50,648 nt of DNA from Candidatus Helarchaeota archaeon (GTDB lineage: Archaea > Asgardarchaeota > Lokiarchaeia > Helarchaeales > RDOG01). Below are positions 16,854 to 39,262 of this stretch, one piece after another. A program made the translations under genes and the position numbers. The stretch is taken from positions 1 to 50,648 of the forward strand of contig JALGVI010000007.1 in the NCBI GenBank assembly GCA_029838215.1. Direction: 5' to 3'. The notes beneath the pieces were generated by a model that worked only from the letters and a program-made list of their open reading frames with translations, did no database searches and was not told the DNA's origin. How positions within the stretch are numbered: position 1 is the stretch's first letter; every line of letters starts with the position of its first letter.

Positions 16854-17252
16854 GTGATGGAAATGTATCAACGAGTTTATTACTTAAGTGCGACATATTT
16901 GGAAATCGAAGAGCTTTTAAAAGCTTACTTGAGGGAGAACGAATGGACTTATACCATTGAATTCCAGACTTTCAAGGCTTTTCGTGATAATTTGAAGATT
17001 TCCATCAAAATCGAAGAACAAATAAACATGACGACCGTCCAAATTTCCGGCGGAAGTTCCGACTACACTATTGAACAAGAGCAAGAGATTATTGAAATTA
17101 TTGCTGATATTGGAGATTATTTAGAAGGATTCTTCATCTCGGATACCAGTTCACCGCAAACTCAAGCGGTGAAAAATGGCTGTCCGATATGCGGAAAGGC
17201 ACTTCGTCGGGGAGTTATTTATTGTCCTAATTGTGGGGCTTTAGTCAAGTAG
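16854..17252 (+). CDS. Hypothetical protein with C-terminal zinc ribbon
   Basis: CPICGK-x7-YCPNCG at the C-terminus; 12-nt convergent overlap with the next gene. Confidence 0.75.
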   Translation: MMEMYQRVYYLSATYLEIEELLKAYLRENEWTYTIEFQTFKAFRDNLKISIKIEEQINMTTVQISGGSSDYTIEQEQEIIEIIADIGDYLEGFFISDTSSPQTQAVKNGCPICGKALRRGVIYCPNCGALVK

Positions 17253-20200
17253 CTCGAATGGTTTTTTCTTTTTCTTGATTTTTTTGGGGTATATCCAATA
17301 ATAGAAGAAAATAGCGAATATTACAATTCCCACGATAACGGGATAACCGATCCAAAGGATTGAAAAGAAAAGAAAATTTCCCGTTGCGTTGTAAAGAATG
17401 GAACTAACGCCGTGAAGTGCAGTAATAAGGGAGATGAAAACTGAAACAAAACCGACTACTGACTTTAATCGGTTATAAATCACTTGGAGAAGGGATTTTT
17501 CGGCATCACCCAACTCACCGCCATCGATCATTTCAAGGTCATCTTTATTCAGGACTTTTCTCATTTCTTGATATGATATTCGACCCATGCCAAAGACAAT
17601 CTCGTTTGTATTGCTGTCAATCTTGATATTGTCCATGTTTGAAGTGCCTAAAATCCTGAAAAGACGGGATTTGAGGGTGGAACGCTTCATTCCCATGCGA
17701 TTTGCCAGTTGTTGAATTGGAATACGTGGTGTTTCGTATACTTTTTCCATGTAGATGAGATTCTTCTTAATGATTTCGTCTTCGAGAAGGATCTTCGTCC
17801 GTTTCAGCACGTCTTCTAATTCATTTATGTTCCATTCTCTCAAAATAACAATGCAGGAGTCCCGAAAGTTGGGAATCTTCAGGTTCTTTTCTGCATTTGA
17901 TATGTGAGACTTAATATCACCGTCCATGTTTTTTAGAACATTCAGCAAGTTTTTATACGTGGCCTTTAGCGTGGCTTGAGCCTCGTCAAGATTACCATTC
18001 TCCAGGAGGTTCGCCTGTTCGAGTTCTATTTCATTGATTAGATTATAAAAATCGTCTTTATGGCGTTCTATTTTCTTTTTTAACTCGATTTTTAACTCTT
18101 CTTCGAGTATGCCTACAAATTTTTGCTCAAACCGTTCTCGCTGTTGTTTTATGTCATATTTTATCGTTGCGATTTCTTCGTTAAATTTACCTTGTAAGTC
18201 TGCGATTATTCTTAAAAATTTCTTAATATTAAGGTCATCTTCCGCTTCTTGAATGAAATTTCGAAGTTTTTCTTCGTGCATGTTGATTTTTTCATCATGT
18301 GAGCCATAAATTTCTTGAAGATAAGAGCGAACCTCATCGAGGTTATGAAAAGAATCAATTTGTTTTAAGATTTTCTCATTAATGTCTTCGAGTTGTGCGT
18401 TAATCTCCAGTAATGCTCCCTTAATGAGATTATCAAATTTCCTTCTATAATCCAGAATTTTTGTAATCAAGGCGACTTCATTCTTTATTTGTGATTTTCG
18501 TTGAGTCCATTTTTGGATTAAGCCTGAATTATACGGGTTCTTTAGTTGTTTTGGGTAATTTCGCTTCAAGAACCCATCGTTTTCTTCGATATTCGCCAAA
18601 ATTTCTTTAGTTTTCGTTTTAATTTCTTCTTTATTGTCATCAAGAAGGTAACTTTCACAGTAATTCAAAAATAAGTTTTTTAAACGTTCAAATTCCTGTT
18701 CTTTCAAGTATTTTTCAATGGTCTTTTCAAACTCTAACTGTTTCAAATTGGGCACGGTAAGAGGGATGATCTCGTCAGCATTTACAAATTCCGCTGATAT
18801 CCTTGCAGACAAAATCATTTGCTCGAGCCGTTTTTTAACGGAGCTCCGACTCAGACCGATCAGTGTTGCTAATTCTTGTATCTTAATTCGTCCGCCCCGT
18901 GCTTCATTTGATTTCTCTAAAATTAATTTTTGTAAGACTGTATCAATGAGATGGTCTTTTTTATTTCGGAGAGAACTCTCCATGAATTTTTCATAGGTCT
19001 TCCATCGGTTCACGGGAACCATCGTGATTTCTGTAAAGTTCTTGAACTCTTGAGATTCTTGGTTCAAGAAGTCGAAAATTGCTCTATTTTCTTTTTTCAT
19101 TTCGGATTTTAGGTATGAATATCGTTCCTTTAGAAGGTGGCAAAGGTTTTTTTCTGGAGTTATCACTTCGAGACGGGAAAGATCTTCCAATTGATCTAAA
19201 GCACGATTCAATTTCTTGATTTTTGAATCGACGAGAGCATCAAATTCTGATTTTTTGGACTTTTCTTTAAGAGTCATTATTTTTTCTTCAGTTTCTTTCT
19301 TGACATCTTCCAGTTCTATTCTCATTTGGTCCATCAAATCTGTCCAAAGAAATGGGATGTCTCCTGCAACGATTTCAAAATCATCCAATATTTTCCCCGT
19401 GTCGTGTATGTATTCGTCAAGAAAGAGGTTGGTTTCCGTGATGAAATCCAGGGCTCGCAGGATTGCCAGATTCAATTCTTCGTTGTCTTCGATTTTTTTG
19501 ATATTTTCCAATCGGTCATGAAAACTTGCTTTTCGTTGGTCCATCAATTTCAGGATTTCATCACGTTTATATATTTTAGATCGCATGTCCTCCAGACGTC
19601 TGGCTGCTGTTGACTGTTTTTGTCTCCATTGCGTCGCCAGAAATTCATCAAATGCACGACTCTTATCTTCCAAATCTTGGTTTAAAGTGATGATTCCTTT
19701 TGCTAACGATGAATCATCCGTGAGGATGACATTCTTCAATAAAGAGCCTTTATTTGTTATTTTATACAATTCGGTGATTTTATTATTGATTTCCTGTGCC
19801 ACTTTTCGAACATTTTCCTCAATTTCGTTAGATCTTCCCAAAAAAATATCTCTTTTCGTGCCGAGTTCGTGTTTTGCACAGGATCTTTGAAAATCTGATA
19901 GCAATGTTTCAATTTGATTATTGAATCTATCCGTATTGTCATTTATGAACTCAACAAGTTTTTCTAATTCATTGTATGCCTTGATGATCTTCTCCCGATC
20001 CTTAATGAGACCATCCAAGTCATTTCTGACGTTTTGAAGTTCTTTTTTCGATTCCGAAAAATTCTTTTTCCATTCTTTTAATGATTCAAGTGATCTCTTG
20101 ATATCAATCAGAAAAAAGCGTTCTTTGAATGAATTGATTGTTTTTTCCTGTTCGGCAAGTTTCACGAGTGCTTGGTCATAATGCTTATCAAGATTACCAC

Positions 20201-21722
20201 GCGCCAATTCGACTTCATCGGCTTCCAATAGAATTTTGATTGATTCTTGAAATTCTTGGATTATCATGGGTAAAAGCGTGATATATTGGTCAATTAATGC
20301 CTCGAACCTGACCAAATCTTGCTTTTCTTCAACGATAGTATTATATGGAAATTCCTTTTTGCGCACTATGATGTTATCGGGTAAGATATAAACTCGGAGA
20401 ACCTGTGTCTTCCTCAGGCGTTTTTTTGATTCTTCAATGCTGCCAATTATGAAGTGTTGCTCGATTAATTTTGAAATGACTTTTTTAACCCTGACTTGCT
20501 TATCTGGAATTCTCCGAAACGTTTTGGCAAAATCAGTCAAGTCAATTTTCATCATTCTTTTATTCAATATATAATCCAGCGTTTTTTTAGCAATTCGCTG
20601 ATCATCGCTGGGAAGGTGACTGAGGTAAGTGTTAAATAGCTCTTTATATTTCACTATATCAACGGAAAACCACTTATACTTGGCTTGCATTTCTCTAACA
20701 AGCCTGAGAACCAACTTTTCGGTCACAAAAAATTCATCACAAAGCGTCCTCACGTACACTTCTTTTTGAACGTGAACGTGTTGGAGAAGACCATCTTCAA
20801 CTTCATCTATGAGTGATGGGAGAAGGAGAAACATTATGGCATCTGCTTGGGCGGTTTGTATTAAATCCGAACGAGCCTCTGTCGGATTTTGATTAAATCC
20901 TCCGTCAGGCTTGAATTTTTCTGATAAAAATTTTATGACTTTTCCTTTATTCAACTTGCGAATTAATTGATAGCCACTAAAAACTGATGTCACAAAAAAT
21001 GTATCCGTAATGTTGCTTTCGTCTGCTTTCTTTCCGAAACCTCCATCCGATCCTTGAAATGATGATATGAATGAAAGAACTAACTCGTCATCGATTACTT
21101 CATGGGGATTTAAAAGCCTGTACGTCAAAAGCAAGTAATACCTATCAATACTGCTTTTTTCCATCCTTTTCAAGAGTATCCTTGACATTCTTTTAGTATC
21201 GAGTAAATCCATTTGATCAAGAAGATAGAGGCTTGCCACGGCAAAGAATGTTGATTTGTACGAAGAATGAGCACCGCAAAGACAATCCTTATTGTTACAG
21301 TGTGAAAAAAGACCATCTGCTTTCTGGTTTTCCATTATGAATCGTAAAGTTTGCTTGCACTCGTCTTCATTAAGCTGATGCCCTAAAAGTTTCAGTCCTG
21401 CAATTGCAAAAAAAGTACTCCACGTGTCAGGATTCCAATTATGTAATGACGAAAATCCTCCTATCGGTGCGCGAAATCGGAAAATAAATTCGCTAATCTT
21501 CTTTTTCAATATCCTGCCAAAAGAATTCATCTCTCCAAGGAAACTCAGTCCCAAGAGAGCGTAAAACGTGCGCTCCAAATCACCAAACCCGTGATTCGAT
21601 TCTAGTTGACCTCGAATATATTTAGTGATCTTAACCCTGAAAGATTTTCCAAGCATGGTATTGAATATTTTTTGATCCTGTTTACTGACACGCCAGCAAG
21701 GAAGCACGAGTTCCGCGCACAT
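17241..21722 (-). CDS. 1493-aa protein: prenyltransferase-beta-like (alpha/alpha)6 repeats, PCI-like winged helices, long coiled coils, two C-terminal TM helices
   Basis: Repeats of F+..Q..DGGF...D...TFFA+..L.LL; PCI-like segments GGRIKIQELATLIGLSRSSVKKRLEQMILSARISAEF and YETPRIPIQQLANRMGM...IKIDSNTNEIVF; hydrophobic hairpin then KKIKKKKK. Start may be 21656. Confidence 0.75.
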   Translation of the reverse strand: MCAELVLPCWRVSKQDQKIFNTMLGKSFRVKITKYIRGQLESNHGFGDLERTFYALLGLSFLGEMNSFGRILKKKISEFIFRFRAPIGGFSSLHNWNPDTWSTFFAIAGLKLLGHQLNEDECKQTLRFIMENQKADGLFSHCNNKDCLCGAHSSYKSTFFAVASLYLLDQMDLLDTKRMSRILLKRMEKSSIDRYYLLLTYRLLNPHEVIDDELVLSFISSFQGSDGGFGKKADESNITDTFFVTSVFSGYQLIRKLNKGKVIKFLSEKFKPDGGFNQNPTEARSDLIQTAQADAIMFLLLPSLIDEVEDGLLQHVHVQKEVYVRTLCDEFFVTEKLVLRLVREMQAKYKWFSVDIVKYKELFNTYLSHLPSDDQRIAKKTLDYILNKRMMKIDLTDFAKTFRRIPDKQVRVKKVISKLIEQHFIIGSIEESKKRLRKTQVLRVYILPDNIIVRKKEFPYNTIVEEKQDLVRFEALIDQYITLLPMIIQEFQESIKILLEADEVELARGNLDKHYDQALVKLAEQEKTINSFKERFFLIDIKRSLESLKEWKKNFSESKKELQNVRNDLDGLIKDREKIIKAYNELEKLVEFINDNTDRFNNQIETLLSDFQRSCAKHELGTKRDIFLGRSNEIEENVRKVAQEINNKITELYKITNKGSLLKNVILTDDSSLAKGIITLNQDLEDKSRAFDEFLATQWRQKQSTAARRLEDMRSKIYKRDEILKLMDQRKASFHDRLENIKKIEDNEELNLAILRALDFITETNLFLDEYIHDTGKILDDFEIVAGDIPFLWTDLMDQMRIELEDVKKETEEKIMTLKEKSKKSEFDALVDSKIKKLNRALDQLEDLSRLEVITPEKNLCHLLKERYSYLKSEMKKENRAIFDFLNQESQEFKNFTEITMVPVNRWKTYEKFMESSLRNKKDHLIDTVLQKLILEKSNEARGGRIKIQELATLIGLSRSSVKKRLEQMILSARISAEFVNADEIIPLTVPNLKQLEFEKTIEKYLKEQEFERLKNLFLNYCESYLLDDNKEEIKTKTKEILANIEENDGFLKRNYPKQLKNPYNSGLIQKWTQRKSQIKNEVALITKILDYRRKFDNLIKGALLEINAQLEDINEKILKQIDSFHNLDEVRSYLQEIYGSHDEKINMHEEKLRNFIQEAEDDLNIKKFLRIIADLQGKFNEEIATIKYDIKQQRERFEQKFVGILEEELKIELKKKIERHKDDFYNLINEIELEQANLLENGNLDEAQATLKATYKNLLNVLKNMDGDIKSHISNAEKNLKIPNFRDSCIVILREWNINELEDVLKRTKILLEDEIIKKNLIYMEKVYETPRIPIQQLANRMGMKRSTLKSRLFRILGTSNMDNIKIDSNTNEIVFGMGRISYQEMRKVLNKDDLEMIDGGELGDAEKSLLQVIYNRLKSVVGFVSVFISLITALHGVSSILYNATGNFLFFSILWIGYPVIVGIVIFAIFFYYWIYPKKIKKKKKPFELLD

Positions 21723-22003
21723 TTAACATCACGATCTTTTTTTTGTTTTATTTTTCTCCAAGAACCGAGCAGGACTCATTCCGGTTCAAGGAGCTTTGAA
21801 ATCATCATTATTATCTCATTAGTGGCAAATATAAAAACATTTGGACATGGCAAGCAATATTTTTTGACCTGCATGAAGCTCGTTTCATGCATTTCCAAAT
21901 GAACCGATCTTCAAATAATCTTCTCAAGTAAAATATATTTTTCTTGTCTAAGAAATAGTTGATTTTTATTATATATTTCAAGCTTGACCCGATTTTGCGA
22001 TAA

Positions 22004-22207
22004 TCACTTCTCCAATTCGCTTTCTAATACCAATTTCCCATCTTTAACGACGTAATTGATCGTATTTCCCCAAAAATTGGTTACTACAACGCGATGTGAT
22101 ATGCCTTTTTCATTGGATTTCGTTACGGATTGAATTTTTAAAGGATACGGTAAATTTCTCTGCTTGTTAATCCATTCTTCTGTAATTTCGAGGTCTTTTT
22201 CACTCAT
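22004..22207 (-). CDS. Small hypothetical protein (67 aa)
   Basis: Protein-like alpha/beta composition, fills an otherwise empty gap; ATG at 22207 (GTG at 22222 possible). Confidence 0.55.
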   Translation of the reverse strand: MSEKDLEITEEWINKQRNLPYPLKIQSVTKSNEKGISHRVVVTNFWGNTINYVVKDGKLVLESELEK

Positions 22208-22463
22208 TTTTTCACTCAACACGCAATATTTTTTTCAATCATAAAAAAATGACGTTTATTTTCAATGTTCCGTGAATACATGGTCTGAGCAATAAATTCG
22301 AGTCCTGAACGGTAACTTTGATAAATTGATTGACAATTGTATTAATAATTATAACTCATTCTGATCAGATTTCGAGGAAGGATGTAAAGCATTCTCACAA
22401 GGATTTTCAGTCGTTCCCGAAGCACTACGGAATGAACCATGATTTATAGACAGGAGAAATCGA

Positions 22464-23636
22464 ATGACTACTGAATTTCAAAAATTTTCTCTAAGACCAG
22501 AGATAATACAAGCACTGGATGAACTTAAATTCCAGAAACCCACGCCAATCCAAGACCGAACAATTCCGATAATAATGGAAGGAAATGATGTCTTGGGACA
22601 GGCAATAACAGGAAGCGGCAAAACTCTCGCATTTGGATTGCCAATCCTTCAAAAAATAAATGACAAGATTAACAAGACACAAGCCGTGATAATCTCCCCC
22701 ACGCGTGAACTTGCCATTCAAATCGCAAACGAGTTGAAGGCTGTTGCAAAGCACACGAAAACTCGCGTGTTATTGATATATGGAGGAGTATCTTACCGTC
22801 CGCAAGAAGAAGGCTTGAAAAAAGGATTTCACATAATTGTAGCCACTCCAGGAAGAATGCTGGATCATCTAAGGAGAGGTGCAAGGAACTTCTTGCGACC
22901 TAAGATCGTCGTGCTAGATGAAGCCGATAAAATGCTCGAAATGGGATTTATTGAAGATATCGATAAAATTCTATACCAAATGAGACAACCGAAACAACAA
23001 AAACTCTTTTTCGGGGCTACAATGCCCGAGCGAGTTTATAAATTGACAAAAAAATACATGAAAAATCCGAAGTTCGTTTCATTAATAAGAGAACAACAAC
23101 GCAAATCTCGCGTTCCGAAAGAGATTCAACAATATTATTATAACGTTTCAGATGATACGGACAAGCTAAATGCCATTTGCAAGACCCTGGATCTAATTGC
23201 TGATGAGCACGAAAATGGCAATTATAAGATCTTGGTCTTCGTGCGAACTCGTAAATCCGCTGATAAATTAAGTCGATTCTTAAAGGAGATGGGCTATGAA
23301 ACATTGGCCATTCACTCCGATAAGTCTCAATTTCAACGAGAGAAAATAATGAACGCATTCCGAAACCATGCTCAATTACTCATCGCTACGGACGTGGCAA
23401 GTCGTGGATTGGATATTGACGGAATCACGCACGTCATAAATTATAACATGCCTCAAATTCACGAAGATTACATCCATCGAATCGGTCGCTGTGGTCGCAT
23501 GGGCAAAAAAGGCGTGGCAATTACCTTTATATCTCCCGATGAACATCGAATGTTAACTGAAATCGAACAGCAGTTAAAAACAAAGATCAACCGGCTTCAA
23601 TTAAATCAGTATTCAAGCCGTGGCGGCATTTATTAG
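22464..23636 (+). CDS. DEAD-box RNA helicase
   Basis: Q motif PTPIQ, TGSGKT, PTRELA, TPGR, LDEAD, GAT (motif III variant), TDVASRGLD, HRIGRCGR; GGAG upstream. Confidence 0.95.
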   Translation: MTTEFQKFSLRPEIIQALDELKFQKPTPIQDRTIPIIMEGNDVLGQAITGSGKTLAFGLPILQKINDKINKTQAVIISPTRELAIQIANELKAVAKHTKTRVLLIYGGVSYRPQEEGLKKGFHIIVATPGRMLDHLRRGARNFLRPKIVVLDEADKMLEMGFIEDIDKILYQMRQPKQQKLFFGATMPERVYKLTKKYMKNPKFVSLIREQQRKSRVPKEIQQYYYNVSDDTDKLNAICKTLDLIADEHENGNYKILVFVRTRKSADKLSRFLKEMGYETLAIHSDKSQFQREKIMNAFRNHAQLLIATDVASRGLDIDGITHVINYNMPQIHEDYIHRIGRCGRMGKKGVAITFISPDEHRMLTEIEQQLKTKINRLQLNQYSSRGGIY

Positions 23637-34884: not shown

Positions 34885-36324
34885 ATGACTGAAGAAGGCA
34901 TGTGGTCGGATCTTCCTTTTAACGTTGGTCTTGTCTACGAAGGCGAACGAATTCGTGGTAAACAGACTTATGTTGAATTGGGTGGTCCAAAACAACCTGC
35001 AAAATTCGAATTAGTCCAGGTCAAAGATGTCAAGGATATCAAGGACATGGACGTAGAAATCATTGGTCCTGACATTCCGGACATGAAAGAAGGCGGAAAT
35101 TATCCGATCGGAGTGTTAGTTGAAGTCGGTGGTAAACAAGCTGAAAAAGACCTTGAAGCCGTGCTCGAAAGACGCATTCACGAATTTTCCAACTTCATTG
35201 AAGGATTAATGCATTTAAACCAGCGTTATGACATCTGGATGCGAATTTCAAAGGCCGCCGTAAAGAAAGGCTTCAATTCATTGAAGATGTACGGCACTGT
35301 TCTTGCACGTCTATACAAGTCTGAATTCGGAAAAATTCTTGAAAAGATTCAAGTGAAACTCTATACTGATCCCGATAAAATTAAACCCATTTATGATAAT
35401 GCAATGGGAATTTGGGAAGCCAGAGATGCACGAGCAAGAGACCTCTCCGATGATGAAGTAGACATGTTCTATGGTTGTACTCTATGTTCCAGCTTTGCAC
35501 CATCCCACGTTTGCACCGTTACGCCTGGGCGAATTGCCTTGTGTGGTGCTATAAACTGGTTTGATGCACGTGCCGCAGCAAAAATTGACCCTGAAGGCCC
35601 TAATTTTGCCATTCCAAAAGGCGAGTGTCTTGATGAATTAGCTGGTGAATATTCTGGAATTAACGAAATCACGAAGAAAAAATCACTTGGAGAAATCGAA
35701 CGGGTAACTTTACACACGATATTAAGTCCTTATAACCATACATCTTGTGGATGTTTTGAAGCCATCGCATTTTTCGTGCCTGAAGTTGATGGTGTGGGAA
35801 TTGTTGACCGAAATTACAAGGGCACTACCGTAAACGGATTACCCTTCAGTACAATGGCAAATTCCACAGGTGGCGGAAAACAAGTCGAAGGGTTCGTCGG
35901 AATGGCTATCGAGTACATGCGTTCCAAGAAATTCCTTCAAGCCGATGGTGGATGGAATAGAATAGTTTGGATGCCTGCAGGAATAAAAAACCGCATTATT
36001 GATGCAATTCCTAAAGACATCGTAGACAAGATTGCGACCGAAGAAGTTGCTACCGACCTAGATTCTTTAAAATCATTCCTCAAGGAGAAGAATCACCCTG
36101 TCGTTAAGAATTGGGTGGAAGAAGCCGAAGAGGAAGAAGAAGAAGAAGCCGCACCCATGGTCCCAGCTGGGGGAATGCAGATGCCATCCATGGTTCCAAT
36201 GATGGGAGGCATTCAAGTAGCGAGTGGCGGTGCTAACTGGAAGATAATACTAAAAGGTGCCAAGATCTACGCCGACGAAATCCATATCAAGCGGATCCAG
36301 CCTAAAAAGAAGAAGAAGAAATGA
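34885..36324 (+). CDS. cdhC: Acetyl-CoA decarbonylase/synthase complex beta subunit (acetyl-CoA synthase)
   Basis: ELGGPK, HLNQRYDIW, CTLCSSFAPSHVC, LCGAINW, HTSCGCFE, DGGWNRIVWMP; poly-Glu and Met/Gly linker at the C-terminus. Confidence 0.96.
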   Translation: MTEEGMWSDLPFNVGLVYEGERIRGKQTYVELGGPKQPAKFELVQVKDVKDIKDMDVEIIGPDIPDMKEGGNYPIGVLVEVGGKQAEKDLEAVLERRIHEFSNFIEGLMHLNQRYDIWMRISKAAVKKGFNSLKMYGTVLARLYKSEFGKILEKIQVKLYTDPDKIKPIYDNAMGIWEARDARARDLSDDEVDMFYGCTLCSSFAPSHVCTVTPGRIALCGAINWFDARAAAKIDPEGPNFAIPKGECLDELAGEYSGINEITKKKSLGEIERVTLHTILSPYNHTSCGCFEAIAFFVPEVDGVGIVDRNYKGTTVNGLPFSTMANSTGGGKQVEGFVGMAIEYMRSKKFLQADGGWNRIVWMPAGIKNRIIDAIPKDIVDKIATEEVATDLDSLKSFLKEKNHPVVKNWVEEAEEEEEEEAAPMVPAGGMQMPSMVPMMGGIQVASGGANWKIILKGAKIYADEIHIKRIQPKKKKKK

Positions 36325-36364
36325 TTTTATTTCTTCTGAACCGAACTCTAGGAGTTGAAATAGT

Positions 36365-36499
36365 ATGGCCGAAGATTTTACCGAACGTCTCAATCGCCTT
36401 TTAAAGGATATCGATGAGGTTGTCATCAAGAATGCACGAATTGAAGCAGACGAGATCGAGCTCGGTCAATCAGAACCTACGAAGAGGAAGAAAAAATGA
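36365..36499 (+). CDS. 44-aa microprotein MAEDFTERLNRLLKDIDEVVIKNARIEADEIELGQSEPTKRKKK (stand-alone CdhC/CdhD terminal motif)
   Basis: Read by hand; GGAG at 36351-36354, TGA overlaps the cdhD ATG (ATGA); motif shared with both neighbours. Confidence 0.75.
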   Translation: MAEDFTERLNRLLKDIDEVVIKNARIEADEIELGQSEPTKRKKK

Positions 36500-37806
36500 G
36501 CGAAGAAATTAAAAAAATCATCGATGGTATTTCCAAGGATGCCGAAGAAATCGTCTTAAAGAATGTTGCTATCGTGGCAGACCAATTGGGTTTCGAACTT
36601 CAAGGCGGTGGCGGTGCCGATCCGCGAGTTCCTTACATGCAGGCAGGGATAATGCAAGCAATGCAAATCTTGCAAGGTGCTGTAGGAGGGCAAGTGATGA
36701 TGCCATCTGGTGCTGGTCTTGCACCTGGAATTGCTGCAGTGTTAAAGTGGAAAGCGCAGACTTTTAATTCGCCCGTTGAAACATATCCGGGTGAAATTGT
36801 TGTCGTGGAATTTTGCCGTTCTGGAAAAGGTGGAGAGGTCGTTAAAGCTGGTGGACAAAAAGCCATGAATTTCTACAATTTTGATTCTTTGATGCCACAT
36901 ACTCCAATCGTAACAGGAGATGTATTTGATATTCCCATTCACAAGAAAGGACGTGAATCTTTTCTCAGACTTTCAAAACCTGTCAAGGATCACTTCCTAA
37001 ATGGTCCCATAGGCGATGTCTCAACAGATGTCGGTGAATGGGCAAAGGCAAACGTGAAATATGGAGCTCAAATGGTCACGATGCATAATATCGGAACTGA
37101 TCCTACAATTCCGAAAAAGCTTGGTGGTCAAAAGTCTCCAAGAGAAGCTGCAAAGAATCTAGAAGAAGTTCTACAGGCTGTAAAATGTCCTGTCGTAATT
37201 GGTGGCTCTGGCAATCCAACAGAAGACATCAAGGTATTCGAAGCCTGTGCTGCAGTATCTGAATCAGAACGACTGCTAATCAGCTCAACTAACCTTGATG
37301 ATTATACAAAAATCGTCCCAATTGCTAAGAAATATGATCATAACATCTTGGGATTCACCCAACTCGACCTAAATAACGCCAAAAAATTGAATGCAGAAAT
37401 GCTTAAGCTAGGAATGCCTAAGGACCACATCGTGATGGACCCAACTTGTGCACCCCTTGGTTACGGAATTCAATATTCATTTTCCATCTATCAACGAATA
37501 CGACTTGCTGCCCTCAAAGGTGAAACGGACATTCAATGTCCGATGAGTGGTGGAACAACAAATGCATGGGGCGCGCGCGAGGCATTTTTGGCAAATAAAG
37601 TCAAGCCAGAATGGGGTGAGCGTAATTATCGAGGTCCACTTTGGGAGATCTTGACTGCATTCATGTTATCCATCGCGGGTCTTGACATAGCAATGATGTT
37701 ACATCCGCTTGCAATCCAATCTTTCCGACAAATAGTTACTGAATTGACCGCACGCGAAAAAGCCGCCAAGATAAATCACTTGGATTGGCTTACGATGGAG
37801 GTATGA
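36496..37806 (+). CDS. cdhD: ACDS delta subunit (corrinoid Fe-S protein small subunit)
   Basis: GGQKAMNFYNF, VVIGGSGNP..D..VFE..A, VMDPT..PLGYG..YS, AWGARE, GPLWE. Confidence 0.95.
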   Translation: MSEEIKKIIDGISKDAEEIVLKNVAIVADQLGFELQGGGGADPRVPYMQAGIMQAMQILQGAVGGQVMMPSGAGLAPGIAAVLKWKAQTFNSPVETYPGEIVVVEFCRSGKGGEVVKAGGQKAMNFYNFDSLMPHTPIVTGDVFDIPIHKKGRESFLRLSKPVKDHFLNGPIGDVSTDVGEWAKANVKYGAQMVTMHNIGTDPTIPKKLGGQKSPREAAKNLEEVLQAVKCPVVIGGSGNPTEDIKVFEACAAVSESERLLISSTNLDDYTKIVPIAKKYDHNILGFTQLDLNNAKKLNAEMLKLGMPKDHIVMDPTCAPLGYGIQYSFSIYQRIRLAALKGETDIQCPMSGGTTNAWGAREAFLANKVKPEWGERNYRGPLWEILTAFMLSIAGLDIAMMLHPLAIQSFRQIVTELTAREKAAKINHLDWLTMEV

Positions 37807-37816
37807 GGTGAGTTAA

Positions 37817-39262
37817 ATGGCAAAACTGTCTCCAATTAAAGTTGTATCGGCTTTACCCGGCACGAATTGTAGAGAATGCGGCGAAGAAACTTGCATGGCA
37901 TTTGCAGTCAAGCTCATTGACCATCAAGTCGATATAAACGATTGTAAGCCCCTCGTATCCGAGAAAAAATATGCGAAGAAATTGAAGGCTCTTAAGGAAA
38001 TTGCAACACCACCCATCCGTAAGGTCGTTATTGGTACGGGTGATCGTAAAATGATTGTTGGCGATGAAGAAGTCATGTATCGTCATGAATTGACGTACTA
38101 TAACCCTTCACCAATCTGTATCGAAGTTGCCGATGATGATTTAGACGAAGTTGCAAAAGTCACAAAATATGTCAACGACTATGAACTTTACCGCATTGGT
38201 GCCAACTATTATTTGGACGGCGTTGCAATCCGCTGCCGATCAAATGATGCAAAAACGTTTGCCGCTGCAGTCAAAAAAGCCAAAGAAATAACTGACATGC
38301 CTTTAATTCTTTGTTCCACCAACCCCGAAATTTTACGTGCTGGAGCAATGGTTGTAAAGGACAAAAATCCACTTCTTTATGCTGCAACCAGAGATAATTG
38401 GGAAAAAGTCGGAAAATTAGCACTGGAATTAAATTGTCCCGTTGCTGTATATTCTTCTGACCTATCCGAACTCAAGTCGCTTGCCACAAGCTTGCATGAA
38501 GCAGGAGTTGAGCAAATCGTACTTGATCCCGGATGTTATTATGGTTCTGGAAACGTCGCGGATACCATTGGTGCACATCTTCAACTCAAGCGTGCTGCAA
38601 TTGAGAAAGATGACAAATTGGTTGGTTTTCCCACAATGGGTGTAACCGCTACTGCGTTTATCGGCAAGGATAAGAATATGTCCGAAGGAGAACGAATCGC
38701 AGCCGCATACGAAGAAGGAAAGATGGCTTGTCTCCTAATGTGTAACGCCTGTAACCTCTTGATCATGCATACAATGGATAACTGGTTTCAACTGGCAATG
38801 GTCGTCGTGCGCGAAAACGTGTATTCCGATCCACGCGTGAATCCTTCAGTAGATGCAAAACTTTACGAAGTTGGCTCTCCGGATCAAGATAGTCCTGTAT
38901 TTATTACGACAAATTATACAATGACCTACTTTACGGTTCGATCGGATCTCCAAGATTTGCGTCTGAATGCTTGGCTTTTGGTCATTGACACGGAAGGAAT
39001 CTCCGTAGAATCTGCCGTAGCTGGCGGTCAAATGGTTGCCTCGAAAGTGGCTGAAGCCATTAAGGAGACTGGAGTTCTTGACAAAGTCAATCATAGGATT
39101 GTAATTATCCCTGGCCTTGCCGCGCGAATCTCCGGAGAATTAGAAGAACTTGCCGATCTCAAGGTTGTCGTTGGTCCAAGAGACTCAAGTGGTATCGAAA
39201 AACTGATGAAAGGATACGATAAGGATAGCTTAATGAAAGATTACCAAGCCATGAAGGCATAA
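37817..39262 (+). CDS. cdhE: ACDS gamma subunit (corrinoid Fe-S protein large subunit)
   Basis: LPGTNCRECGEETCMAFA...C [4Fe-4S] motif, YRHEL, TTNYTMTYF, IIPGLAARISG, VGPRDS. Confidence 0.95.
   Translation: MAKLSPIKVVSALPGTNCRECGEETCMAFAVKLIDHQVDINDCKPLVSEKKYAKKLKALKEIATPPIRKVVIGTGDRKMIVGDEEVMYRHELTYYNPSPICIEVADDDLDEVAKVTKYVNDYELYRIGANYYLDGVAIRCRSNDAKTFAAAVKKAKEITDMPLILCSTNPEILRAGAMVVKDKNPLLYAATRDNWEKVGKLALELNCPVAVYSSDLSELKSLATSLHEAGVEQIVLDPGCYYGSGNVADTIGAHLQLKRAAIEKDDKLVGFPTMGVTATAFIGKDKNMSEGERIAAAYEEGKMACLLMCNACNLLIMHTMDNWFQLAMVVVRENVYSDPRVNPSVDAKLYEVGSPDQDSPVFITTNYTMTYFTVRSDLQDLRLNAWLLVIDTEGISVESAVAGGQMVASKVAEAIKETGVLDKVNHRIVIIPGLAARISGELEELADLKVVVGPRDSSGIEKLMKGYDKDSLMKDYQAMKA

Follow-up and report, generated by a model that had tools for sequence, protein, structure and literature searches.

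A Membrane-Anchored Giant Protein of One Asgard Class Combines an Apparently Inactive Prenyltransferase-Type Barrel with PCI-Like Modules and Helical Rods

Introduction

Protein-prenyltransferase beta barrels, PCI subunits, and spectrin-type rods are three kinds of module best known from eukaryotes. Here we describe a gene whose product joins all three types to a membrane anchor. The protein, P0001 (hereafter the giant), is encoded in a 50,648-nucleotide stretch of contig JALGVI010000007.1 from a Candidatus Helarchaeota archaeon; we refer to the whole of this stretch as the window. Asgard archaea are being searched for cell-biological parts shared with eukaryotes, a search that bears on eukaryogenesis, and the giant represents a nearly universal, single-copy protein of ~1,480 residues in one Asgard class.

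The closest described relative of the N-terminal barrel is the beta subunit of RabGGTase and GGTase-III (RABGGTB; PF00432), an (alpha/alpha)6 toroid to which the barrel is colinear over six repeats. Unlike RABGGTB, the giant's barrel lacks the Zn ligands D, C, and H as well as the diphosphate-binding Arg, Lys, and His; its repeat-4 loop is deleted, and repeat 3 carries a new H/C/C/(C,H,D) loop. In addition, ~1,180 more residues and a membrane anchor are fused to the barrel, and a search for an alpha subunit gave nothing above cut-off.

The winged helices recall two eukaryotic systems. They resemble the PCI subunits of the proteasome lid, the COP9 signalosome (CSN), and eIF3 (Rpn6/PSMD11, CSN2, eIF3e) in the last two helices plus the winged helix, with shared sequence signatures and a superposition at a root-mean-square deviation (rmsd) of 2.1–2.4 Å over 88–90 residues (18–22% identity). 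In contrast to these subunits, the giant has spectrin-like bundles in place of the upstream TPR-like solenoid, and it carries two modules per chain and a membrane anchor; it is not known to have an MPN partner or to join a multi-PCI complex. The second system is DDRGK1 (UFBP1)/UFL1, the scaffold of the UFM1 ligase, which gives the best profile match to one of the winged helices and likewise presents a membrane-anchored winged-helix array with long helices. However, the anchor of DDRGK1 is N-terminal, whereas that of the giant is C-terminal, and neither UFL1 nor DDRGK1 has a toroid.

For the rods, the nearest structures are those of spectrin, plakins, and alpha-actinin. The likeness extends over two to three repeats, but the score lies in the generic helical range, there is no similarity at the sequence level, and the giant lacks actin-binding CH domains. 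Tail-anchored golgins such as giantin are also large cytoplasmic helical proteins with a C-terminal membrane anchor. The giant differs from golgins in having two spans in its anchor, arranged as a hairpin, instead of one, and in having rods that, where modelled, are bundles and not a continuous coiled coil, with globular winged-helix modules interrupting them.

We found no description of this family in the literature on Asgard prenyltransferases, prenylation, coiled coils, PCI domains, or spectrin. Database labels for it are merely "hypothetical" or "prenyltransferase repeat protein", and a survey of ESCRT names PCI-like winged-helix domains in other archaeal proteins only (PMC10936438). We see about an even chance that the giant is a non-catalytic, membrane-anchored cytoplasmic scaffold. 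The coordinates of its parts are collected in Table 1.

The barrel keeps the prenyltransferase fold and has lost the catalytic residues

Residues 23–310 are a genuine protein-prenyltransferase-beta toroid with six colinear repeats. An initial annotation, made from the sequence, had proposed such a barrel from about six alpha/alpha repeats at ~21656–20825 (residues 23–300), and every comparison agrees with it. The region matches the Pfam family Prenyltrans with E 1.4e-21. In an AlphaFold2 (AF2) model of head and neck, built from 8 sequences, the barrel has 12 helices with a predicted local distance difference test score (pLDDT) of 80–96, and its best Foldseek matches are RabGGTase/GGTase-III beta. 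VIA-align superposed it on RabGGTase beta with Z 26.1 and an rmsd of 2.6–3.0 Å over 260–265 residues at 19% identity; all 50 best VIA entries are protein prenyltransferase beta subunits. Global hhalign against RabGGTB-like library sequences, which carry the D-V-C-Y-S-W-W and D-x-F-H-T motifs, gave a colinear alignment over 296 columns (Prob 99.8%).

The catalytic residues fared differently from the fold. In the hhalign alignment, the catalytic Zn ligands Asp and Cys (repeat 5) and His (repeat 6) correspond to N237, T239, and Q289. Positions 239 and 289 are freely variable and hold Cys or His in 0/38 family members. The diphosphate-binding Arg falls opposite a gap, the Lys corresponds to D234, which varies within the family, and the repeat-4 loop that bears the diphosphate-binding His is deleted. 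Thus, the fold is that of the enzyme and the site that defines the enzyme is gone. The barrel is apparently an inactive, non-catalytic copy of the eukaryotic protein-prenyltransferase barrel. The earlier suggestion that it captures isoprenoids or lipidated proteins finds no support in a barrel that has lost both its Zn ligands and its diphosphate-binding residues. Since the protein looks like a prenyltransferase without the residues that define one, it should not be annotated as a prenyltransferase.

The partner subunit was looked for as well. In the giant's own genome (94% complete), the one match to the PPTA alpha subunit (PF01239) scored 24.3 bits, below the cut-off of 29.5 bits, and control archaea gave similar sub-threshold matches. 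A quick tree built from 54 toroids set the family, including its soluble relatives, apart from the RabGGTB-like clade as a group of its own (SH-aLRT 100); this tree does not settle a sister relation to eukaryote-type beta subunits, and the library sequences in it carry no taxonomy. Repeat-level Pfam matches to squalene cyclase and TED were judged spurious.

Repeat 3 carries a conserved, putative metal-binding loop

The barrel contains a family-specific loop in repeat 3 with the pattern H-C-x(3,4)-C-x(1,2)-[C/H/D]. H141, C142, and C147 are invariant (38/38 members), and the fourth position, 149, is C in 32 members, H in 3, and D in 3. Because substitutions at position 149 are confined to metal ligands, we read the loop as a metal site, most simply for Zn. 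It is probably a zinc knuckle: with four ligands packed into 9–10 residues, a structural role would be more fitting than a catalytic one. The loops of repeats 5 and 6 that hold the Zn ligands of RabGGTB would, by homology, place the cluster on the open face or rim of the barrel. Outside the membrane-anchored proteins, the soluble paralogues P0009 and P0010 have two extra CxxC-type ribbons between repeats 2 and 3, and P0078, a paralogue in the giant's own genome, has lost the cluster.

The same loop invites a different interpretation, in which the metal site has been relocated and the barrel is still an active enzyme. It would modify a thiol or an isoprenoid through the H/C/C/(C,H,D) cluster, by prenyl or alkyl transfer or by cyclisation, and the rest of the protein would position this activity at the membrane. 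The fold family consists mostly of Zn-dependent thiol alkylators, nothing else in the protein is as conserved as the cluster, whose variable position is limited to metal ligands, and by homology its repeat loop and the canonical active site share one face of the barrel. Against this, four protein ligands in so short a stretch would fill the coordination sphere, as is typical of structural Zn. The three canonical Zn ligands and the diphosphate-binding Arg, Lys, and His have all been lost; the search for an alpha subunit gave nothing above cut-off; and the soluble paralogue in the same genome does without the cluster altogether. We consider an active enzyme unlikely.

Two PCI-like modules are duplicates of each other

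The initial annotation had placed PCI-like winged helix-turn-helix (wHTH) segments at 18900–18780 (residues 941–981) and 17740–17570 (residues 1328–1385), and these identifications held. Each segment belongs to a larger module of ~80 helical residues followed by a winged helix, WH3 in module 1 and WH4 in module 2. A profile of residues 860–1000 (WH3) matched PDB entries for a DDRGK1-UFL1 chimera (2.9e-8), PSMD11/Rpn6 (1.2e-5), DDRGK1 (3.9e-5), CSN2 (1e-3), and eIF3e/c, whereas DNA-binding Lrp/AsnC proteins reached only 0.5–0.8. A profile of residues 1230–1395 (WH4) matched eIF3e (0.008) and DDRGK1-UFL1 (0.024), and also CSN4, CSN7b, and Rpn6. When 19 members were scanned individually, PCI (PF01399) was the top Pfam family for WH3 in 12/19 and for WH4 in 11/19, with a best E of ~4e-7; HTH_24 came first in 4/19. 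The two modules are duplicates of each other (hhalign Prob 99.3%, E 1.5e-20, 132 columns).

The structural model points the same way. The AF2 model of residues 860–1395, built from 19 sequences, has a mean pLDDT of 88.4 and contains two winged helices of helix-helix-hairpin form. Nearly all of its top 50 Foldseek matches are PCI subunits of eIF3, the lid, and CSN, but at E 1e-4 to 3e-2 and with whole-chain TM-scores to PCI subunits of only 0.15–0.2. In VIA, residues 860–989 superposed on the CSN2 PCI core with Z 11.3 (rmsd 2.1 Å, 90 residues) and on PSMD11 with Z 10.6 (88 residues, 22% identity), scores that are 1–1.5 above those of generic winged helices (Z 9.4–9.7). The two helices before the winged helix superpose on CSN2 and PSMD11, while farther upstream the model matches spectrin repeats and not a solenoid. 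WH3 superposed on the DDRGK1-type winged helix with Z 9.9 (rmsd 1.5 Å, 64 residues), a value that generic winged helices nearly equal. Other PCI proteins in the giant's own genome gave sub-threshold matches only. The earlier idea of a quality-control platform derives solely from the PCI resemblance.

Winged helices might instead make the giant a membrane-tethered receptor for nucleic acids or ribosomes, which would bind DNA, RNA, or ribosomes and tie the nucleoid or translation to the membrane; its models would be DDRGK1/UFL1 at the endoplasmic reticulum and AsnC/HTH_24-type regulators on DNA. The DDRGK1-UFL1 array is indeed the best PDB profile match of WH3, but searches of the giant's own genome gave no match to UFM1 (PF03671) or UFC1 (PF08694), with the limit that the genome is 94% complete, the controls were weak, and the UFC1 profile matched none of them. 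The WH3 of P0001 passes Pfam HTH_24 with 29.7 bits, yet the profiles match PCI and DDRGK1 proteins far better than Lrp/AsnC. Finally, a DEAD-box helicase gene is the divergent neighbour of the giant in the window and in two related contigs, but it is absent from 20/20 more distant orthologous loci. On balance, a receptor of this kind seems improbable.

The modelled rod resembles spectrin-type bundles and the neck is shared with another protein

Two rods alternate with the PCI-like modules, and they too resemble each other (hhalign Prob 98%, E 1.5e-13, 247 columns). Rod 2 was modelled with a pLDDT of ~90 as helices of 14–68 residues with short loops between them, and throughout residues 860–1395 the helices are mostly 30–68 residues long and joined by short loops. 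Residues 989–1329 match two to three consecutive spectrin repeats of plectin (SR7–9), beta2-spectrin, and alpha-actinin in VIA with Z 11.5–11.7 over 210–300 residues. Conserved tryptophans punctuate the region: among 38 members, W551 is invariant and W699 and W907 are each present in 97%. The modelled rod (residues 860–1395) is a series of antiparallel helical bundles, closest in the model to spectrin and plakins, and does not form a continuous coiled coil. If the rods are spectrin-like, we estimate that about seven repeats would span ~35 nm, compared with >100 nm for a coiled coil of 900 residues. A Ribophorin_II Pfam match in the rod (22.9 bits) was below cut-off and was judged spurious.

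These data bear on the coiled coil of ~900 residues and the golgin analogy put forward in the initial annotation. The all-helical character stood; the continuous coil did not, given the short, looped helices of residues 860–1395. Because these helices match spectrin repeats, a golgin-like continuous coil is unsupported where it could be tested, and the analogy fails for the modelled rod. A golgin-type vesicle tether would be a tail-anchored, parallel dimeric coiled coil whose distal barrel captures prenylated GTPases or isoprenoid lipids. The C-terminal anchor and the distal head are real, sequence that is charged and heptad-like occurs at residues 520–760 and 1080–1230, and some family members have a small-GTPase gene only a few genes away. 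But the modelled helices, 30–68 residues long, fold back as hairpins, the highly conserved rod tryptophans are of the kind found in bundle cores, the prenyl-binding residues are lost, and a GTPase gene lies near only 1/20 sampled orthologous loci. We regard such a tether as highly improbable.

Between barrel and rod 1 lies the neck (residues 313–460), in which two wHTH segments had been proposed. Residues ~336–435 weakly resemble the WH3 module (hhalign Prob 80%, E 1.4e-5); AF2 confidence for the neck was <50 (8 sequences), and residues 300–470 gave no significant PDB profile match and no Pfam family. Part of the proposal thus stands, and WH1 and WH2 are best called putative.

A copy of the neck occurs in P0160 (L038:5719–7098, (-) strand; genome G041, another family of the phylum), a protein of 459 residues in which HEAT/adaptin-like repeats precede a C-terminal neck. 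This copy matches the profile of the giant's WH1–WH2 (A6) with E 1e-15. Because P0160 joins HEAT/adaptin-like repeats to a neck, the neck seems to be a mobile module that follows different alpha-helical heads.

The C-terminus is a two-span membrane hairpin

P0001 ends in two hydrophobic segments, residues 1418–1444 and 1448–1480, and a Lys-rich tail. The transmembrane (TM) hairpin read from the sequence at the outset was thereby recovered, and it is general: hairpin and basic tail are present in 20/20 sampled orthologues from other genomes and in 13/13 TM-type representatives. By hydropathy, P0001 has no N-terminal hydrophobic segment. By the positive-inside rule, the whole protein would face the cytoplasm.

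A single-copy family in one Asgard class

The gene is a single open frame that starts with ATG. The version of P0001 in the public protein collection begins at Met23 and has 1,471 residues. However, residues 1–22 can be aligned with the two closest homologues, P0004 and P0005, and Pro8 and Trp10 belong to the family consensus, so the ATG at 21722 is the likelier start.

P0001 is the Helarchaeales-type member of a single-copy family that is confined, in our sample, to one Asgard class, with members carrying the labels Lokiarchaeota or Helarchaeales. We surveyed 200 genomes of the phylum with the neck region as probe. One copy of the giant was present in 39/40 genomes of one family and in 2/3 of another, both belonging to the same class (41/43), and the giant was not found in the other 157 genomes; among these, the probe matched only the HEAT-plus-neck relative of ~460 residues, in three genomes of one family (f17). 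An exhaustive profile search with residues 1–470 returned whole-head matches in ~35 clusters (at 50% identity), with lengths of 1,230–1,490 residues. The ESM Atlas holds an unnamed cluster of 192 members (~1,467 residues) with Prenyltrans on 81% and PCI on 19%.

That the frame might be an assembly chimera or mis-called can be virtually dismissed, because full-length, colinear homologues occur in independent assemblies, at 67% identity in a metagenome-assembled genome (MAG) labelled Helarchaeales, at 60% in a Logan contig, and at ~36% in MAGs labelled Lokiarchaeota or Helarchaeales, and because the survey added >40 colinear orthologues in other genomes with open frames of 1,465–1,501 residues, in line with the length of the Atlas cluster. 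A search for sequencing runs that contain window 17000–22000 returned none, RNA runs included.

A proposed architecture

The initial picture of a membrane-anchored scaffold with a distal barrel is a fair description, with the toroid fold, the PCI-type winged helices, and the C-terminal hairpin all confirmed. In the arrangement that we propose, the two-span hairpin with its basic tail would fix the giant to the membrane. Outward from there would follow two tandem units, each made of a helical-bundle rod and a PCI-like module, then the helical/winged-helix neck, and finally the barrel. With its catalytic Zn and diphosphate sites lost and a four-ligand rim loop gained, most likely for structural Zn, the barrel may be a head that binds a protein or lipid ligand. 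The role of PCI domains in the lid, CSN, and eIF3 suggests that the PCI-like modules may provide surfaces for docking or oligomerisation, and the rods may provide spacing on the order of a few tens of nanometres.

Several points weigh against the scaffold reading. "Scaffold" is the default label for a multi-module protein without catalytic signatures, and a perfectly conserved cluster of metal ligands at the barrel rim could be catalytic or redox. P0001 itself reaches 19.8 bits for PCI, short of the 22 that Pfam requires, and HTH_24 outscores PCI on its WH3. The spectrin-like Z scores are below ~13, the level where helical matches become specific. The neck model is of low confidence, confident models being those of residues 23–310 and 860–1395, and the cytoplasmic topology is deduced from charge and hydropathy.

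A bolder version of the scaffold is a long shot. The family might form a Lokiarchaeia-wide membrane skeleton or docking platform, in which the relocated Zn site of the barrel recognises or modifies Cys-containing or lipid-bearing ligands at the membrane and the PCI modules nucleate an assembly like the lid, CSN, or eIF3 in that place. Its parts, a RabGGTase-beta-type barrel, PCI modules, and spectrin-like rods, are otherwise typical of eukaryotes. If true, the eukaryotic lipid-anchor and PCI-scaffold machinery would have a prokaryotic precursor or analogue in this family. If partners are found, the giant could show how these cells organise the cytoplasmic face of their membrane or their protrusions.

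Table 1. Parts of the giant and neighbouring features, with their positions in the window
Feature	Residues	Position	Strand	Remark
Whole open reading frame, P0001		17241–21722	-	1,493 residues plus stop codon; ATG start; single open frame
Protein-prenyltransferase-beta-like (alpha/alpha)6 toroid	23–310	20793–21656	-	Pfam, AF2, Foldseek, VIA, hhalign; repeat 4 degenerate
Family-specific H141-C142-x4-C147-x-C149 loop, repeat 3, putative zinc knuckle		21276–21302	-	Conservation in 38 members
Neck: head-proximal helical / putative tandem winged-helix region WH1-WH2	313–460	20343–20786	-	Conserved across the family (A6); diagnostic in the genome survey
Rod 1, all-helical	461–859	19146–20342	-	High heptad and charge scores; hhalign to rod 2
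PCI-like module 1, two long helices plus winged helix WH3	860–989	18756–19145	-	Profile versus PDB, VIA, Pfam
Rod 2, helical bundles of spectrin-repeat type	990–1244	17991–18755	-	AF2, VIA
PCI-like module 2, helices plus winged helix WH4	1245–1380	17583–17990	-	hhalign to module 1, Pfam, profile versus PDB
C-terminal two-span hydrophobic hairpin	1418–1480	17283–17471	-	Kyte-Doolittle segments
Lys-rich C-terminal tail	1481–1493	17244–17282	-	Translation; basic tails throughout the family
Membrane protein P0002		11823–16286	-	1,487 residues
Zinc-ribbon open reading frame		16854–17252	+	132 residues; converges on the giant gene
Spacer between giant and DEAD-box genes		21723–22463		740 bp
DEAD-box helicase		22464–23636	+	Divergent from the giant
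CdhC, CdhD		34885–39262	+	CODH/ACS subunits

Relatives without the anchor

Some family members lack the membrane hairpin. P0009, P0010, P0014, P0015, and P0022 are soluble relatives of ~1,230–1,355 residues that end in a different domain of 130 residues, and P0016, P0024, P0042, and P0078 stop before WH4. P0078 (G000:C164, L017:7360–11199, (+) strand) is a soluble paralogue of 1,279 residues in the window's own genome. Its toroid is degenerate; the neck, a rod, and PCI-like module 1 are kept, whereas WH4 and the TM hairpin are missing. Upstream of P0078, at a distance of two to three genes and beyond an Eco57I-type methylase gene, are two genes for Ras-family GTPases.

The replacement domain recurs in the window itself. 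From its N-terminus, the membrane protein P0002 consists of a hydrophobic segment, a large ectodomain rich in N-x-S/T, one TM span, and a cytoplasmic part made of a 130-residue domain and a wHTH (PF24409-like). This cytoplasmic domain is homologous to the C-terminal domain that the soluble relatives have in place of WH4 and the TM anchor (BLASTP 7e-18 to P0009; alignment A8). Searches with the shared 130-residue domain returned no Pfam or PDB family; one member matched the longin domain at 0.033. In the closest syntenic contig (L003), P0002 is not adjacent to the giant.

Gene neighbourhood

Around the giant, the window encodes a DEAD-box helicase, MaoC, the zinc-ribbon protein, PCMT, MazG, VTT/DedA, carbon monoxide dehydrogenase/acetyl-CoA synthase (CODH/ACS), ABC transporters, and glycosyltransferases. 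The pairing with the DEAD-box gene is kept in contigs L001 and L003 and in 0/20 distant orthologous loci, and a Ras-type small-GTPase gene lies near the giant in 1/20. No neighbouring gene is conserved across the 20 orthologous loci, and P0017, P0025, and P0045 lie in unrelated contexts. We therefore rejected a conserved neighbourhood and regard the giant as a stand-alone gene.

The zinc-ribbon frame, whose ribbon is C-terminal, overlaps the last 12 bases of the giant gene. It is probably a real gene, because L003 has a homologue with 59% identity at the corresponding position.

Elsewhere in the family, other genes accompany the giant. In the P0009/P0010 lineage (L002:158–2791, L005:2451–5085), it is preceded by a thiolase gene, a DUF35/OB-fold gene, and a gene for a 351-residue protein without a Pfam record; this order presumably recalls the mevalonate-pathway operon of archaea that encodes acetoacetyl-CoA thiolase and HMG-CoA synthase. 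In the same lineage, a gene for a 348-residue Arf/Ras-type GTPase follows the giant at a distance of two to three genes. In two Lokiarchaeota-type contigs (L001:19319–20977, L004:9502–11157), a gene for a JAB/MPN protein of ~550 residues is found ~5 kb downstream of the giant, next to a small-GTPase gene; the window does not share this linkage. PCI proteins usually have MPN proteins as partners.

Two further observations concern metabolism. The CdhC and CdhD genes of the window (CODH/ACS beta and delta/gamma-type subunits) are consistent with an Asgard archaeon that uses the Wood-Ljungdahl pathway, and in a related genome (L009) a gene for methyl-coenzyme M reductase alpha lies near its copy of the giant.

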